64,000 bases of DNA from Gemmatimonadota bacterium (GCA_020350785.1 CP070722.1:1133939-1197938); one strand, 5' to 3'; numbered from the stretch's first letter, positions 15,162 to 26,711 are shown. The notes: generated from the letters alone by a model not told the origin. Program-made: numbers and translations.

Positions 15162-16106
15162 ATGCTGATAAGGCGTGCCCCCGAGATCAAAGAATCGGAA
15201 GTCACCGACGAGCGACTCTACGTGGACCGCCGCCGCTTCATCCGCACCGCGGCGGGTGCTGGCGCCGGCCTGGGACTGGCATCCGCGTTCGCACCCTTGC
15301 TCGCTTGCGAAGGTGACGCGGGCGACCGCGCCGGGTCGGCGTCCGACCAGGAAGAAGAGCTGACTCCCTTCGAGGACGTCACGACCTACAACAATTTCTA
15401 CGAGTTCGGCACGGACAAGAGCGATCCCGCCCGGAACGCTCACACTTTGCGAACGCGTCCCTGGACGGTGACGGTGGAGGGCGAATGCAGCAAGCCCGGC
15501 ACTTACGACATCGAGGACATCCTGGGGCGCCATCCGGCGGAGGAGCGTATCTACCGACTCCGCTGCGTCGAAGCGTGGTCGATGGTGATTCCCTGGATGG
15601 GCTTCCCTCTTTCCGACTTCATCGAGGACTTGCAGCCGACATCGAATGCCAGGTTCGTGGAGTTCCGTACCCTCTACGACCCCGAGCAGATGCCGGGCCA
15701 GCGGCGCGCCGTTCTCGACTGGCCTTACGTCGAAGGGCTGAGGATGGACGAGGCGATGCACCCGCTCACCATCTTTGCCGTCGGCCTGTATGGAAAGGTG
15801 CTGCCGAATCAGAACGGCGCGCCGATCCGCCTCGTCGTACCCTGGAAGTACGGCTTCAAGAGCATCAAGTCGATCGTCGGCATCCGCTTCGTGCGTGAGC
15901 AGCCGATGACGACCTGGATGACCTCGGCACCGAGGGAGTACGGTTTCTACTCCAACGTAAACCCCGAGGTCGACCACCCGCGCTGGAGCCAGGCCCGGGA
16001 ACGTCGGATCGGCGAATTTCGCCGGCGCCCGACGCTCATGTTCAACGGCTACGCCGACCAGGTCGCCCATCTGTACGCGGGCATGGACCTGCGCAAATTC
16101 TTCTAA
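15162..16106 (+). CDS. msrP: Protein-methionine-sulfoxide reductase catalytic subunit MsrP (YedY), molybdopterin enzyme with Tat signal
   Basis: 314 aa. Twin-arginine signal [21 protein letters not shown] and the conserved YedY motif [16 protein letters not shown]. Confidence 0.9.
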
Positions 16107-16121
16107 CCACTGATCGGGCCC

Positions 16122-16808
16122 GTGCCAGCGAACCGTAGATTGATCGAGCGAGCCACTCGGACCGGGATATTCCTGCTCGCCCTGGCCCCCTTCGGCCTCC
16201 TCGCTTTCGACACCTTGACCGACCGGCTGGGCACCAACCCCATCGAGACCGTCACTCATCGGACGGGTTGGTGGGCGCTGACCTTCTTGCTGCTTACTCT
16301 GGCGGTGACGCCCGTGCGGCAGCTCACGGGCATCGGTTGGTTGGTCAAGCTGCGCCGCATGCTGGGTCTTTATGCATTCTTCTACGCCAGCTTACACTTC
16401 GGGGTGTATATCGGGCTCGACCAGTTCTTCGCCTTCGACTACATCGTCGAGGACATCATGGACCGGCCCTACATCACGGTCGGTTTCACGGCACTGGTGA
16501 TCCTGACCCCTCTCGCTCTGACCTCCACCAAGAGAATGGTGAGGCGGCTGGGCGGCAGACGCTGGAATCGCCTCCACAAGATGGTTTACGTGGCAGCCGT
16601 TCTCGGCGTGCTCCATTTTCTCTGGCTCGTCAAAGCGGACATCCTTGAGCCGGCGATCTTCGCCCTGACGCTCGGCCTGCTCTTGAGCTACCGATTGGTG
16701 ACTAGCGGTCTGCGACAGCTTCGCCTGCGACGCGCCGCCCGAAGCGCTGCGCGACCGGCCAGCTTGCGTGCGCAGTCGCCCGCCGCTGAGGGCAGTGCCG
16801 GCGCTTGA
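16122..16808 (+). CDS. msrQ: Protein-methionine-sulfoxide reductase heme-binding subunit MsrQ (YedZ)
   Basis: 228 aa, 6-TM ferric-reductase-like protein directly downstream of msrP, with conserved His-containing helices (LHFGVYIGLD, VLHFLWLVKADI). Confidence 0.85.
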   Translation: MPANRRLIERATRTGIFLLALAPFGLLAFDTLTDRLGTNPIETVTHRTGWWALTFLLLTLAVTPVRQLTGIGWLVKLRRMLGLYAFFYASLHFGVYIGLDQFFAFDYIVEDIMDRPYITVGFTALVILTPLALTSTKRMVRRLGGRRWNRLHKMVYVAAVLGVLHFLWLVKADILEPAIFALTLGLLLSYRLVTSGLRQLRLRRAARSAARPASLRAQSPAAEGSAGA

Positions 16809-16867: not shown

Positions 16868-17776
16868 CTATTTCTTCCGTGAAAGGTCGCTGTAGAGGAT
16901 ACGGGTGAAGGTCTCTGGATTGAGGAAGCCCTGACCCCACTTCTCATCCCAGGCGGCGGTCGGCTTCGCCGCCTGCACCTCCTCCAAGCTCTTCCCCATG
17001 GCGATCTGCTCGGCCATGGCCTCGCGCACGCCGACCAGCATCTCGCGGAACTCTGCCAGGCCCGCCTTGTTCGAGAGCGTGCCGTGACCCGGGATGACCC
17101 TGGTCTCATCGTCGATCAGAGGAAGCACTCGGTCGGCGGCCGCGATCATCCCGTCGATCGAGCCGCCGGCCGACACATCGATGAAGGGATAGAGACCGTT
17201 GAAGAAGGTGTCGCCCATATGAACCGTGTTGGCCCGACGGAAGTGCACGATCGCGTCGCCGTCCGTATGCGCGTTGGCGACGTGAAAGACGAAGATCTCG
17301 TCGCCGTTGATATGGAAAGTGACGGCCTCCGAAAAGGTCACGATTGGCAGGGCACCCGGCGGCGACGCCGGGACCGTGCGACCGAAAGCCTCCATGAACT
17401 GCTCGACGCTCATCCGCTCGCGCACGTTGTCGTGCGCGACGATCAGAGCCCCGGCCTCGCCCAAGTTCTCGTTGCCCCCGGTGTGATCGGAGTGCCAGTG
17501 CGTGTTGAGGACGAACTCGATGGGCAGATCGCTGATTTCACGAATCGCGGCAACGATCTTGTCGGTCAATGGCGCGTATTGGTCGTCGATAAGGAAAACG
17601 GCATCTTCACCCACCGAGACACCGAGGTTGCCGCCAGCTCCCATGAGCATGTACACGCCCGGTGCCACCTGCTGCGTGCTGATCTGAACGTTATCGAAAT
17701 CCTGGGCGTTTGCGCTCAGCGTGCTGATCGGCAGCGCCAGAATGGCCCATACCGCTACATTATTGCGTACTCTCAT
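16868..17776 (-). CDS. Secreted MBL-fold metallo-hydrolase (beta-lactamase-like)
   Basis: 302 aa. Signal peptide. HWHSDHTGGN (HxHxDH) metal-binding motif and downstream His/Asp ligands. Confidence 0.8.
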   Translation of the reverse strand: MRVRNNVAVWAILALPISTLSANAQDFDNVQISTQQVAPGVYMLMGAGGNLGVSVGEDAVFLIDDQYAPLTDKIVAAIREISDLPIEFVLNTHWHSDHTGGNENLGEAGALIVAHDNVRERMSVEQFMEAFGRTVPASPPGALPIVTFSEAVTFHINGDEIFVFHVANAHTDGDAIVHFRRANTVHMGDTFFNGLYPFIDVSAGGSIDGMIAAADRVLPLIDDETRVIPGHGTLSNKAGLAEFREMLVGVREAMAEQIAMGKSLEEVQAAKPTAAWDEKWGQGFLNPETFTRILYSDLSRKK

Positions 17777-17964: not shown

Positions 17965-18366
17965 ATGAATAAGCCGAAGATTCGTAAGAGCGATCAGCAG
18001 TGGAAAGAGTCCCTGACGCCCGAGCAGTACCGGATTACACGCCAGAAAGGCACGGAGCGCGCTTTCAGCGGGGAGTACGTCGACAACAAAGACGCCGGAA
18101 TCTATCGCTGCATCTGCTGCGGCAATGAGCTGTTCCGTTCCGATGCCAAGTACGACTCGGGGACCGGCTGGCCCAGCTTCTGGGAGCCGGCCTCGCAGGA
18201 CAGCGTGAGCACCGAGCCCGACAACAGCCTATTCATGCGCCGCACCGAGGTGCTCTGCGCCGCCTGCGAGGCTCACCTGGGGCACGTCTTCGAGGACGGT
18301 CCGCAGCCGAGCGGGCAACGTTATTGCATCAACTCGGCGGCGTGGAAGTTCGAGCAGCACGACTAG
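17965..18366 (+). CDS. msrB: Peptide-methionine (R)-S-oxide reductase MsrB
   Basis: 133 aa. Two CxxC zinc-binding pairs ([21 protein letters not shown]) and the catalytic region typical of the SelR/MsrB family. Confidence 0.9.
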
Positions 18367-18533
18367 GCTCGACGCTGCCTCTGCCCGGCGCGGCGCAATG
18401 GACGGGGGGAATCGTTCACTGTTAGTATTAAGTATCAGGGCACAGTCGAGTCAGCGCCCAGCCGGGAAAGGCCGCCGAGCGGTCGAGGCGAAGACACAAG
18501 CAAGGAAACCTACGTCAAAGAGAGTTCGAACAG

Positions 18534-19067
18534 ATGTTGCGGCTTAAGGATCTGATGCAGCCCAACGTGGTTGCCGTCTCACCCGATCTCACCCTGCGAG
18601 AGCTGTTGGAGGTGCTGACCGAGCAAGAGGTAAGCGGAGCTCCCGTCGTTGCCGGCGGCACGGTGATCGGCGTCGTCTCGACCACCGACATCTTCGACCT
18701 TCAAGAGGATGCGCACGACCTGAGCGACCACGGAGCCACAGCGGACCTCGAGTCCTCCGGGCGCCGGAACCCCTCCAGCCCAGAGTTCTTTGTCGACACC
18801 TGGGACGGAACTGGGGGCGGTGCGCTGGAGTTGATGCGGACGGCTCGGGGTCGCTCCTGGAACCTGTTGGATGAATACAATGTCTCCGATGTGATGACCC
18901 GCGAGATCATTAGCCAGCCGTCAAGCACTTCGATCACGACGGCAGCGCGCTACATGATTGACGCTGGCATCCGCCGCATACTCGTCATCGACGATGGAAT
19001 CCTCCAAGGCATCGTGACTACCACTGATATCATGCGCGCCGTCGCCGAGGGACGACTCAAGGGCTGA
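18534..19067 (+). CDS. CBS domain pair protein
   Basis: 177 aa. Two CBS-like repeats (MQPNVVAVSPDLTLRELLEVL...GAPVV and VMTREIISQPSSTSITTAARYMIDAGIRRILVIDDGILQGIVTTTDI). Confidence 0.8.
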   Translation: MLRLKDLMQPNVVAVSPDLTLRELLEVLTEQEVSGAPVVAGGTVIGVVSTTDIFDLQEDAHDLSDHGATADLESSGRRNPSSPEFFVDTWDGTGGGALELMRTARGRSWNLLDEYNVSDVMTREIISQPSSTSITTAARYMIDAGIRRILVIDDGILQGIVTTTDIMRAVAEGRLKG

Positions 19068-19120
19068 GTACGACAGGCGGCGCCTGATCGATTGCCAATG
19101 ATAACTGAAGGGAGAGTCGC

Positions 19121-23679
<4,559 letters not shown>

Positions 23680-23680
23680 G

Positions 23681-25393
23681 ATGGAGAACATTGACTACGC
23701 TCACGTCTTTCAGGAGATCGCCGACCTGCTCGAGATACAGGGTGCGAACCCGTTCCGCGTGCGTGCCTACCGGAACGGGGCCCGGACGATCGAGACTCTA
23801 TCCAAGTCCCTGGAATCCGTGCTGGACGACGAGGACGCGCGCCTCGAGGACCTCCCTGGGATAGGCAAGGACTTGGCCGCAAAGATCCGCGAGCTGTTCC
23901 AGACCGGTCAACTGCAGTTCCTCGTAGAGTTACGCCAGGAGGTGCCGGCCTCGCTCATCCAGATCATGCACATCCCGGGGCTAGGACCCAAGCGCGCCCG
24001 CCAACTCTGGGATGGATTGGAGATCACCACGATCGAGGAGCTGGAGTCCGCCGCCCGCGACGGTTCGCTGGAATCACTACCCGGCTTCGGAAAGACACTC
24101 GAGGCCAAGATCCTGAAAGGGATCGAGGAACTGAAGGCTCGTGCCGGCCGCTTCAAGCTGTCGGACGCCGACATATACGTCCAACCTCTACTCGCTTATC
24201 TGAGAGAAGCGGACGGGCTCGACCACCTGGAAGTCGCGGGCAGCTACCGACGCCGTGCCGAGACCGTCGGCGACATCGACATCCTGGCCACCGCCGGCGA
24301 AGACTCGTCCCTGATGGAACACTTCGTCGCCTACCGCGACGTCGACCAAGTGCTTGCAAAAGGCCCGACCAAGAGCTCGATTCGGCTAAGAGCCGGCCTT
24401 CAAGTGGATCTGCGCCTGGTGCCTCGTGAGAGCTACGGTGCCGCCCTCGTCTACTTCACCGGCTCCAAGGCGCACAACATCGTCATCCGTGGCATCGGCC
24501 GCGAACGAGGGCTCAAGATCAATGAGTACGGCGTCTTCAGGGGAGACCAGCTGGTCAGCGGGACGACCGAGGGTGAGGTCTTCGCCTCTATCGACCTGCC
24601 CTGGATACCCCCGGAACTTCGCGAAGCGCGTGGCGAGGTCGAGGCGGCGCGGGACGGTCGCCTGCCCGAACTCATCGAGCGCCGCATGATCCGGGGCGAC
24701 CTCCAGATGCACTCCACCTACAGTGATGGCAAGAACAGTGTAGAAGAGATGGTGGATGCCTGTCGCGAGCGTGGCTACCAGTACATGGCCATTACCGATC
24801 ACAGTCCGGCACTGGCGATGGCCGGCGTGAAACCGGACGATTTCCGCAGGCAGTATCGCGCGATAGACAAGTTGCAGGCGAAACACGATGATATCCGCAT
24901 TTTGAAGTCAGCCGAGGTCGACATACTCGACGAGGGCAAGCTCGCTCTCGACGATGACCTCCTCGAAGAGATGGACGTTGTCGTCATCTCGGTCCACTCT
25001 AAGTTCAATCTCACGCGTGACCAGATGACTCGCAGAATCACCCAGGCGATGAAACATCCAAGCGTCAATATCCTCGCCCACCCCACCGGCCGCTTGATCA
25101 ATCGCCGCGAGCCCTACCCCGTCGATGTCGAGGAGCTGGTGAAGGTCGCGAGTGAATACGGAGTTCTGTTGGAGTTGAACGCTCAGCCCGATCGCCTGGA
25201 CCTCCGCGACTATCACCTACAGATGGCGCGCGAGGCGGGCGTCAAGATCGTCATTAGCACCGATGCCCACCGGACCGCAGAGCTGGATTACATGACTTAC
25301 GGCATCGAGCAGGCTCGCCGAGGCTGGCTAGAGATAGAGCATGTCGCCAACACTCAAACGCTTGACAAGTTCTTGAAGCTGCTCAGGAAGTGA
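23681..25393 (+). CDS. polX: DNA polymerase/3'-5' exonuclease PolX (Pol beta-like domain + C-terminal PHP domain)
   Basis: Track ORF 23582.. extended. Real start at ATG 23681, 1 nt after the ligA stop (MENIDYAHVFQEIADLLEIQGANPFRVRAYRN...). PHP motif HSTYSDGKNSVEEMV...AITDHS. Confidence 0.9.
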   Translation: MENIDYAHVFQEIADLLEIQGANPFRVRAYRNGARTIETLSKSLESVLDDEDARLEDLPGIGKDLAAKIRELFQTGQLQFLVELRQEVPASLIQIMHIPGLGPKRARQLWDGLEITTIEELESAARDGSLESLPGFGKTLEAKILKGIEELKARAGRFKLSDADIYVQPLLAYLREADGLDHLEVAGSYRRRAETVGDIDILATAGEDSSLMEHFVAYRDVDQVLAKGPTKSSIRLRAGLQVDLRLVPRESYGAALVYFTGSKAHNIVIRGIGRERGLKINEYGVFRGDQLVSGTTEGEVFASIDLPWIPPELREARGEVEAARDGRLPELIERRMIRGDLQMHSTYSDGKNSVEEMVDACRERGYQYMAITDHSPALAMAGVKPDDFRRQYRAIDKLQAKHDDIRILKSAEVDILDEGKLALDDDLLEEMDVVVISVHSKFNLTRDQMTRRITQAMKHPSVNILAHPTGRLINRREPYPVDVEELVKVASEYGVLLELNAQPDRLDLRDYHLQMAREAGVKIVISTDAHRTAELDYMTYGIEQARRGWLEIEHVANTQTLDKFLKLLRK

Positions 25394-25428
25394 ACGAACC
25401 GTGCACCTACCAAGCGGAGGTAAGAGTC

Positions 25429-25896
25429 ATGTCAGTCGCGCCTGAAGTCGAGAAACTCCTGAGGGAAGAGGGCGTGAAGTACGAGGTGATCACACACCCT
25501 ACCGCCTACACGGCGGCGGAGGAGGCCGCGGTCTCACATATCTCGGGCTATGAGTGGGCCAAGACCGTGATCTTCTTCACCAAGAAGGGCGAGCCCGTCA
25601 TGGCGGTGCTCTCCGCCTCTCACCACGTGAACGCACGACTGCTCGAAGACCTCGTCGGCTCCGGCAAGCTTCGCCTGGCTGAGGAGTCGGACTTCGCTGG
25701 CCTTTATCCCAATTGCGAGCCCGGAGCCATGCCGCCGTTGGGCAATCTCTACGGGCAGCGCGTCTACGTGGACCAGAGGTTGACGGAGGACGAAACGATC
25801 GTCTTCAACGCCGGTAACCACACTGAAGCGCTGCGCATGTCTTACGCCGACTTCGCGCGGATGACCAAGCCGGTGGTGGGCAACTTCGCCGAGTAG
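25429..25896 (+). CDS. YbaK/ProX-type aminoacyl-tRNA deacylase (prolyl-tRNA synthetase associated domain protein)
   Basis: Start at MSVAPE (GGAGG RBS upstream). About 155 aa with YbaK-like motifs (VKTVIFFTKKGEPVMAVLSASHHVN, GAMPPLGNLYG). Confidence 0.75.
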   Translation: MSVAPEVEKLLREEGVKYEVITHPTAYTAAEEAAVSHISGYEWAKTVIFFTKKGEPVMAVLSASHHVNARLLEDLVGSGKLRLAEESDFAGLYPNCEPGAMPPLGNLYGQRVYVDQRLTEDETIVFNAGNHTEALRMSYADFARMTKPVVGNFAE

Positions 25897-25913: not shown

Positions 25914-26711
25914 TCAGAGACTGGCGCGCTTGACTGCCTGATCGACATGCTCGGCGATGAAGCGGCGCAGAAGCGTCTCGAAGTCTACGGCGTAGCGCAA
26001 CTCGGAGGCGCGCAGACCGAGCGTGTCCTGGACGTGCTGCCAAAAGTTGGAGGGCGCACTGTACCCGAGCCGGTGAACAACGTCGTACGGGTTGTAACCG
26101 GGATCTTCCAACAGCTTCGACGCGTACATCAGTCGGAGCCAGAGCAAGCAGGTCTTCGGTGTCGGCAATCCACTCGATCTGAACGTGCGATAGAATGAGC
26201 GGTGCGAAGACTCCATGAACTTGCTCCACTCCAGCGCCGATCTGATCTTGTCGACATTCCGAAGGGCAAGCCGAAACGCTCTAACGATCCCACGGTTCTT
26301 CACATCGAGCCCGCCGAATATCCGCTTCAGGATCTGCTCGGACACCGAAAAGCGCGCCGCGTCCTCGACGGAGCGCGCCAACTGCAGCGGCGTATCCCCG
26401 TGATCCAGAAAAACCGCGCTGTGGACGCCGACGCTGCCCAGCCGAAGTAAGGCATCGGCCAGATCCGGTGAGAATGGCATGTAGAGGACGACCGAAAGCG
26501 ACGGATAGTAGGCGCGCAAGCGCTCGACCGCGGCCACTTCGACATCCGCCTCACGCACGGGATCCACAATGACGAGCTCGATCGGCGCCCGGCGAATCAG
26601 CTGGTCGAGATCCGACCAACTGGGTGCGAACACCAGCTCGTAATCATCGCTGATCGCCGCCAGCAGGCGCGAGCGTGCCTGCGGCAGCCACAGATACGCG
26701 GCAGCGTGCAT
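25914..26711 (-). CDS. Response regulator with receiver-like N-domain and AraC-type HTH output domain
   Basis: 265 aa. The N-terminus has an acidic pair (SDDYELV) and a putative phospho-acceptor in VIVDP. The C-terminus has AraC-family HTH signatures (LGYSAPSNFWQHVQDTLGLRASELR). Confidence 0.7.
   Translation of the reverse strand: MHAAAYLWLPQARSRLLAAISDDYELVFAPSWSDLDQLIRRAPIELVIVDPVREADVEVAAVERLRAYYPSLSVVLYMPFSPDLADALLRLGSVGVHSAVFLDHGDTPLQLARSVEDAARFSVSEQILKRIFGGLDVKNRGIVRAFRLALRNVDKIRSALEWSKFMESSHRSFYRTFRSSGLPTPKTCLLWLRLMYASKLLEDPGYNPYDVVHRLGYSAPSNFWQHVQDTLGLRASELRYAVDFETLLRRFIAEHVDQAVKRASL

Follow-up and report, generated by a model that had tools for sequence, protein, structure and literature searches.

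Genes for the family-X DNA polymerase PolX lie in operons whose composition is class-specific, and among the partners named in the main text of Prostova et al. 2022 are, for Alphaproteobacteria, LigD and, for Methanomicrobia, an ATP-dependent ligase, the usual partners in Bacilli and Clostridia being MutS2 and ZapA (PMC9226535). Neither LigA nor Gemmatimonadota is listed among the PolX partners in the main text of that paper (PMC9226535), and our literature search for Gemmatimonad* together with PolX found no paper mentioning both. The locus considered here occupies positions 17,965 to 25,896 of a 64,000-nucleotide stretch, hereafter the window, from a Gemmatimonadota bacterium (GCA_020350785.1, CP070722.1:1133939-1197938), and in it polX directly follows ligA, downstream of genes for a CBS-pair protein and a LonC-type Lon-like protease and upstream of a ybaK-like gene. 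As in the PolX-ligase operons described by Prostova et al., a family-X polymerase gene lies directly beside a co-directional DNA ligase gene, the arrangement is lineage-specific, and combined end-processing, gap filling and sealing is implied. In contrast to those operons, one sub-clade here has the pair behind the LonC protease and the CBS protein, and the gap within the pair is 1 nt; the case is a variant of the known PolX-ligase operons because the partner is a full-length, housekeeping-type, NAD+-dependent LigA, and not LigD or an ATP-dependent ligase.

The PolX of the window keeps the palm and PHP motifs of the Thermus thermophilus enzyme (ttPolX, 3AU2) and differs from it, and from B. 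subtilis PolX (YshC), in its genomic partner, LigA. A functional analogy may also be drawn to eukaryotic short-patch base-excision repair by Pol beta and DNA ligase III/XRCC1, in which a one-nucleotide gap is filled by a family-X polymerase and closed by a ligase, the two acting in concert; the eukaryotic pair is coupled by protein scaffolding, whereas the pair in the window would be coupled by gene order and translation. In our judgement the likeliest account of the locus, which we hold with moderate confidence, is that CBS, lonC, ligA, polX and the ybaK-like gene form one unit, that ligA-polX is its core, that the CBS-lonC part was added in one sub-clade, and that LonC, CBS and the YbaK-like protein are passengers.

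The ligA-polX pair and its distribution

The ligA gene (21643-23679, plus strand, GTG start) encodes a full-length NAD+-dependent DNA ligase of 678 amino acids, which scores 819 bits against NF005932 (equivalog cutoff 369) and 783 bits against TIGR00575, and which has the complete Pfam domain set (Nlig-Ia, DNA_ligase_aden, DNA_ligase_OB, HHH_2 and BRCT), with KLDG and the four zinc-finger cysteines (CPSC...C...C) legible in its translation. The polX gene (23681-25393, plus strand, ATG start) specifies a DNA polymerase of family X, 570 amino acids long, with a C-terminal PHP domain; it scores 556 bits against NF006375 (equivalog cutoff 426), matches HHH_8, HHH_5, palm, thumb and PHP, and aligns over its full length with 3AU2 at 505 bits. 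In this alignment GDIDIL and VDLRLV pair with GDLDFL and VDLRVV of ttPolX, and the PHP motif GDLQMHSTYSDG pairs with its ttPolX counterpart, GDLQxHSTYSDG being retained. Motifs of the GDIDIL/VDLRLV type carry the catalytic palm aspartates in family-X polymerases, and ttPolX-like enzymes, as in Thermus and Bacillus, combine gap filling with the 3'-5' exonuclease and end-cleaning activities of the PHP domain. With the palm aspartates retained, the window PolX is by its motifs a polymerase of the canonical type and not one of the 'altered' PolX proteins of Prostova et al. 2022.

The two genes meet stop to start at 23677-23683, where TGA-G-ATG leaves a 1-nt gap. For comparison, genome and metagenome collections supplied 164 loci around LonC homologues, to which look-up of exact proteins added several; the genome-collection scan kept the best 80 of at least 600 stretches, and all locus counts are thus those of a sample, not of a census. 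In the close clade, each of the 15 loci that show the ligA-polX junction has a gap of 1 nt there, and TGA-N-RTG-GAG-AAC is found in every one of them and also in the more distant locus L165. These features suggest that ligA-polX is probably a co-translated fill-and-seal module.

The pair is also found outside the close clade. In loci L165 and L168, where PolX is 68-71% identical to that of the window, the order is msrB-ligA-polX with a junction of 0-1 nt (0 nt in L168), followed by PPDK, and lonC, CBS and ybaK are all absent from the block. In L169 (PolX 61%) ligA and polX are separated by 5 nt and followed by a ribonucleotide reductase gene and then by a YbaK-like ortholog, two genes downstream of polX, and in L170 (PolX 62%) the two genes are 53 nt apart in surroundings that are otherwise unrelated. 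The LigA/PolX identities in these four loci are 68/71, 67/68, 59/61 and 58/62%, and the way in which LigA identity tracks PolX identity fits a co-inherited pair. A polX gene on the same strand as a ligase gene and within 300 bp of it, recurring within a lineage, is therefore present in 15 close relatives as well as in L165, L168, L169 and L170. Since the pair persists without lonC, CBS or ybaK where PolX is 61-71% identical, ligA-polX appears to be the older and more durable unit, though a lineage-restricted one, and CBS-lonC an addition in one sub-clade; that CBS-lonC joined an existing ligA-polX pair, and not the reverse, is the direction that we infer for the event.

The more distant loci offer some further observations. 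In L169 (1-5474; GCA_016209945.1, a Gemmatimonadetes metagenome-assembled genome, MAG) a Ku gene and a LigD_N (phosphoesterase) gene lie beside ligA-polX in divergent orientation, so that one intergenic control region is common to the genes of non-homologous end joining and the PolX-LigA pair. In L172 (4147-7716) and L174 (4446-7713), where PolX is about 60% identical, polX is located downstream of a gene for a Ham1/RdgB-type house-cleaning NTPase; in L174 it comes directly after RNase PH and Ham1, and in L172 it is set apart by a CNNM/CBS gene on the minus strand, RNase PH being found further upstream. Both have an rpoD-like sigma factor gene downstream, so that the context is a different, nucleotide-pool-related one.

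The CBS-lonC block, its putative promoter and the extent of the unit

When the open reading frames (ORFs) were re-derived, the six genes of the initial annotation, from msrB to ybaK, were recovered exactly at its coordinates, on one strand, with intergenic gaps of 167, 53, 2, 1 and 35 nt, and profile searches upheld the labels MsrB, CBS, LigA and PolX. The annotation had further stressed that lonC, ligA and polX are packed stop to start, and had proposed that this adjacency be looked for in related genomes; the packing is kept by all relatives whose LonC is close to that of the window, at 21 loci for lonC/ligA and 15 for ligA/polX. Two of its labels hold in part. The 'LonH (YcbZ-like)' protein is indeed Lon-like and belongs to another subtype, LonC of MEROPS family S16, YcbZ being more distant and N-terminally shorter; and the 'YbaK' protein belongs to the YbaK superfamily, the editing of mis-acylated tRNA that had been ascribed to it being too specific a claim.

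The lonC gene (19121-21640, plus strand) encodes a protease of 839 amino acids with Pfam matches to AAA_32 (PF13654, E 8e-52), LonB_AAA-LID, LonC_helical (PF20437, E 9e-13) and Lon_C; among solved structures it comes closest to MtaLonC/TTC1975 (283 bits over residues 304-763). Its Ser-Lys dyad remains intact, with S658 in GDSAS and K701 invariant in a 14-sequence alignment and aligned with the dyad region of MtaLonC. The insertion CX3GLX(G/E) in the alpha3-beta9 loop is specific to LonC (PMC3391209), and the window protein has it as CKRRGLTG (residues 709-716), with C709, L714 and G716 invariant. Its AAA-like module is degenerate, the Walker-B-like GYLLLDA (GYLILDA in MtaLonC) having no catalytic Glu and the Walker-A-like GLPGSGRAT carrying Arg in place of Lys. 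MtaLonC is without ATPase activity and works as a chaperone-protease (PMC3391209, PMC13069640), and by its motifs the window LonC would likewise be an ATP-independent protease or chaperone. Thus it shares with the LonC of Meiothermus taiwanensis and TTC1975 of T. thermophilus (PDB 4FWD and others) the helical domain, the dyad, the insertion and a Walker-B-like GYLxLDA without Glu, and differs from MtaLonC in its length (839 as against 732 amino acids), in the Walker-A-like Arg, which is Lys in MtaLonC, and in an N-terminal third that aligns weakly. E. coli YcbZ ('LonH', 586 amino acids) is homologous to it along 415 C-terminal residues, with 32% identity and 213 bits, a stretch that comprises the protease domain and part of AAA_32; YcbZ has no LonC_helical match and no counterpart to the ~215 residues with which the window protein begins, including the Walker-A-like region, and the window protein is nearer to LonC.

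In all 21 loci in which LonC is at least 71% identical and the sequence reaches past lonC, ligA follows lonC directly, with a gap of 0-7 nt and a purine-rich lonC 3' end (GAGGAG or similar), and those clade loci that extend further than ligA keep polX and ybaK. In the window the junction (21632-21645, plus strand) reads GAGGAG, which resembles a Shine-Dalgarno sequence and lies within the lonC tail, then TAG, CG and GTG. The last ~34 codons of lonC (21535-21640) are of low complexity, acidic and Pro/Gly-rich, and this tail cannot be aligned among close relatives (tblastn ends at residue 805), yet its end is purine-rich every time and also provides the Shine-Dalgarno sequence of ligA. The CBS gene (18534-19067, plus strand) encodes a stand-alone CBS-pair protein of 177 amino acids (PF00571, two stretches, E 5e-26) and lies 38-67 nt ahead of lonC among relatives; on the comparison of loci it heads the unit in most relatives and is dispensable in some. 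The last gene (25429-25896, plus strand, ATG start) follows polX at 11-219 nt among relatives and in the window is preceded by a Shine-Dalgarno-like GGAGGT at 7 nt from its ATG. Its product, of 155 amino acids, matches the tRNA_edit superfamily domain PF04073 (94.7 bits), scores 45.8 bits against the YbaK equivalog TIGR00011 (cutoff 153.25), and has as its best solved relative 3OP6, annotated 'uncharacterized protein'; by these scores it is a YbaK/ProX-superfamily protein and not canonical YbaK, the Cys-tRNA(Pro) deacylase. Co-directional genes with short gaps, conserved in relatives, are accordingly what is found for CBS-lonC-ligA-polX-ybaK.

A putative sigma-70-like promoter for this unit lies on the plus strand at 18399-18428, ~105 nt upstream of the CBS start, with a -35 element TGGACG (18399-18404), an 18-nt spacer and a -10 element TAGTAT (18423-18428). 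The spacer between msrB and CBS is 54-178 nt long among relatives and variable in sequence, yet it always contains TGGACG, 17-18 nt and TA(G/C)nnT; T.GACG and TTA...T do not vary in any of the 12 relatives aligned, in which the remainder of the spacer region does. All clade loci scanned have the motif upstream of CBS or, in L083/L084, which are without CBS, ~55 nt ahead of lonC; elsewhere in the 64-kb window it is matched just twice, and no conserved copy was found inside lonC, ligA or polX of the clade loci scanned. On the evidence of motifs only, then, the unit has a promoter upstream of CBS (or lonC) and none conserved internally. A consensus promoter scan missed this promoter, and it was the comparative alignment that revealed it. 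A scan for intrinsic terminators detected none on the plus strand between 17.9 and 25.9 kb. A permissive Rfam search of 17.0-27.5 kb gave two sub-threshold chance matches only, and therefore no riboswitch or leader family in the 5' untranslated region of CBS. Within the promoter spacer (18405-18422), alignment positions T28 and C29 are more than 90% conserved (consensus ATTCCTTCC), which could reflect an operator overlapping the promoter or shared ancestry.

According to the account that we prefer, a single transcript of CBS-lonC-ligA-polX-ybaK-like would begin at ~18435, driven by the promoter at 18399-18428, and ribosomes finishing lonC would reinitiate on ligA, as those finishing ligA would on polX (stop-to-start, TGA-N-RTG). 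PolX would fill gaps and clean DNA ends via its PHP domain and LigA would seal the nicks, and their joint production would serve short-patch base-excision or single-strand-break repair. In the ancestor of the sub-clade, a CBS-lonC block carrying a promoter of its own would have come to sit directly before ligA, the lonC-ligA gap would have shrunk to 0-7 nt, and the purine-rich tail of lonC would have become the ligA ribosome-binding site. Most likely, LonC, CBS and the YbaK-like protein are passengers that are co-expressed and serve in general stress or in quality control, and not mechanistic partners in repair.

Some neighbouring features and rejected candidates belong here as well. On the minus strand of the window (25914-26711) a gene for an AraC-type (HTH_18) regulator converges on the ybaK-like gene across a 17-nt spacer; it has a tblastn match in L095 only, among the 15 close-clade loci compared, and an HTH_18 gene occupies the equivalent position beside tatA in L165 and L168. 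Because of this patchy occurrence the position is taken to be a variable slot between the operon and tatA. An anti-phage defence system, such as one with a BREX BrxL-type Lon, was considered and rejected: the PADLOC models gave no match for the Lon-like, CBS, PolX or YbaK-like proteins, and for LigA a weak match confined to the HhH/BRCT C-terminal region (residues 535-673).

Counter-evidence and alternative explanations

Several points weigh against the account given above. Both co-transcription and translational coupling are suggested by spacing and motifs only, and weak promoters internal to lonC or ligA may exist. The conservation of gene order within the close clade, at ~75% protein identity, is by itself weak evidence of selection, because the flanking genes on both strands are syntenic too (upstream msrP, msrQ and a minus-strand metallo-beta-lactamase-fold gene; downstream minus-strand tatA and a DUF1232 gene), and the time available for rearrangement could have been too short. 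In addition, ligA is absent from 6 of the 10 PolX contexts outside the close clade (L012, L166, L167, L171, L172 and L174), and the pairing is therefore lineage-restricted and dispensable for PolX function. Finally, an apparently independent lonC-ligA adjacency in L068, a Methylomirabilia MAG, keeps alive a small possibility of a real Lon-ligase link.

The alternative that survives best is genome compaction, in which the genes would be transcribed independently from promoters inside the upstream coding sequences and their order would merely reflect recent shared ancestry. It is favoured by the flanking synteny, which is equally conserved on both strands within the close clade, by the frequency of tight junctions in this genome, with at least 13 other co-directional junctions in the 64-kb window that overlap or measure no more than 6 nt, and by the fact that promoters of high-GC bacteria are often missed by simple consensus scans. 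Tight spacing on its own is thus unremarkable; what goes beyond chance is that both the lonC/ligA and the ligA/polX junction are conserved among relatives. Moreover, ligA-polX survives down to 58-62% identity while all neighbouring genes change, the 1-nt junction leaves a promoter no space outside coding sequence, and no promoter-like motif is conserved inside lonC, ligA or polX, as one is upstream of CBS or lonC. We consider compaction alone to be an unlikely, if possible, explanation.

The initial annotation had proposed a single damage-induced macromolecule-repair super-operon of all six genes, from msrB to ybaK, gated by the CBS protein as a nucleotide sensor. The common strand of the six genes, the lack of a detectable terminator between them, and an oxidative and macromolecular damage theme shared by their products speak for this view, as does the position of msrB (17965-18366, plus strand), which precedes the block in every close relative and precedes ligA in L165 and L168. 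Its product is a methionine-R-sulfoxide reductase by profile (TIGR00357, 193.7 bits against a cutoff of 113.05) and by the CxxC zinc motifs CICC and CAAC and the catalytic-Cys motif RYCINS, read off the translation. However, the conserved promoter lies downstream of msrB, a minus-strand ORF intervenes between msrB and CBS in L091 and L093 and two such ORFs between msrB and lonC in L083/L084, and msrB of L093 begins 6 nt from the stop of msrQ; for these reasons msrB most likely forms a separate transcription unit, grouped with msrP and msrQ upstream, and of the single unit that had been claimed the part from CBS to the ybaK-like gene stands, on motifs and spacing, without msrB.

Gating by the CBS domain fares no better, since CBS is missing in L083/L084, where the promoter stands directly before lonC, and among 117 other lineages is found ahead of lonC in just 2. 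As for induction by damage, a housekeeping-type LigA is needed for lagging-strand joining. Because the ligase is of this type, expression would be at least partly constitutive, and a purely damage-induced unit is unlikely unless the genome holds a second ligase. The aligned promoter regions showed no conserved palindrome of operator type, an inverted-repeat scan was empty at the promoter, and no SOS-type operator was recognisable, though a LexA box peculiar to Gemmatimonadota may have escaped recognition. Candidate LexA boxes in the msrB-CBS gap of the window, CTGT...ACAG and GTTCGAAC strings, were rejected, their spacing being unlike that of known boxes and relatives lacking them. Taken as a whole, the six-gene damage-induced unit is very improbable.

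The surroundings of msrB itself deserve a brief description. Genes resembling msrP (Oxidored_molyb) and msrQ (Ferric_reduct) lie just upstream of it in the window (15162-16808, plus strand), split from it by the minus-strand metallo-beta-lactamase-fold gene (16868-17776). That gene is absent in L093 (5177-6283), and in L001 (7101-9319) there is no match to it and msrB comes ~250 nt after the msrQ match. The grouping gives what would be a periplasmic-plus-cytoplasmic methionine-sulfoxide repair cluster.

A further explanation makes LonC a mechanistic partner of LigA and PolX, which would, for example, clear proteins trapped on DNA, such as polymerase-lyase or ligase-adenylate dead-end complexes or other DNA-protein crosslinks, ahead of gap filling and sealing, or would control the turnover of both enzymes, with CBS sensing adenine nucleotides or NAD-related ligands. 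The 0-7 nt lonC/ligA junction in all 21 close relatives can be read in this way, as can the second lonC-ligA adjacency, in L068, and the presence of polX 3.5 kb downstream of tandem lonC genes in L012. In L068 (4395-8691) the ligA ORF, of 598 amino acids, starts 35 nt ahead of the lonC stop and is not followed by polX; its product aligns to residues 4-591 of the 678-residue window LigA and is probably without the BRCT domain. L012 (9938-22368), from a Chloroflexota MAG, contains two LonC paralogues 2.5 kb apart on the same strand, PolX lying ~3.5 kb downstream of the second. Against a partnership, the sister lineages keep ligA-polX without lonC, and the LonC that has been characterised acts on unfolded proteins, no DNA-repair link being reported in the literature that we retrieved on LonC.

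The wider distribution of lonC points in the same direction. Among ~140 loci with LonC no more than 50% identical, from many phyla and including other Gemmatimonadota (L002, L003 and L100-L106), ligA immediately follows lonC in one of the 110 with enough downstream flank, L068, and tblastn over all ~140 found no further adjacent ligA or polX. In a Pfam census of L005-L164, the gene most often found directly downstream of non-clade LonC encodes a universal stress protein (Usp; 12 of 110); genes for HSP20, Cpn60, HSP70 and BON-domain proteins are also among the neighbours, those upstream are heterogeneous, and no DNA-repair family is found among the 25 most frequent Pfam families on either side. 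These neighbours hint that LonC belongs to general stress neighbourhoods, and a lonC that is operonic with DNA repair genes, as in the window, was not met among the LonC genes of other phyla surveyed. The initial annotation had called the coupling of ligA and polX to a Lon-like protease unusual, which is borne out for the adjacency, a lineage-specific one, and not for the tight spacing, which is ordinary. We give a mechanistic LonC partnership very little credence, and least of all the more elaborate proposal that LonC was recruited as a DNA-repair accessory, clearing DNA-trapped proteins or setting LigA and PolX levels, made in fixed ratio from one promoter and tuned by CBS to the adenine-nucleotide/NAD state, for which the hints are limited to the always-tight lonC/ligA junction and the L068 adjacency; the link to Lon is most likely incidental.

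With regard to the origin of the block, horizontal transfer of CBS-lonC is disfavoured both by GC3, which is similar throughout the cluster (0.76-0.84), and by the nearest non-clade LonCs, which are ~50% identical and belong to other Gemmatimonadota (L002, L003). Relocation of CBS-lonC within the phylum is more likely than foreign acquisition.

Significance for PolX and LigA in Gemmatimonadota

The locus is a real but fairly ordinary lineage-specific operon, and it reveals no new biochemistry. It offers an example of operon growth, in which a promoter-bearing CBS-lonC block apparently captured an existing gene pair. It also extends the theme of PolX-ligase association, represented by LigD and by the ATP-dependent ligases of archaea, to LigA, and the stable linkage of LigA and PolX in part of a poorly studied phylum implies that the housekeeping ligase, and not one reserved for repair, is the sealing partner of PolX there.

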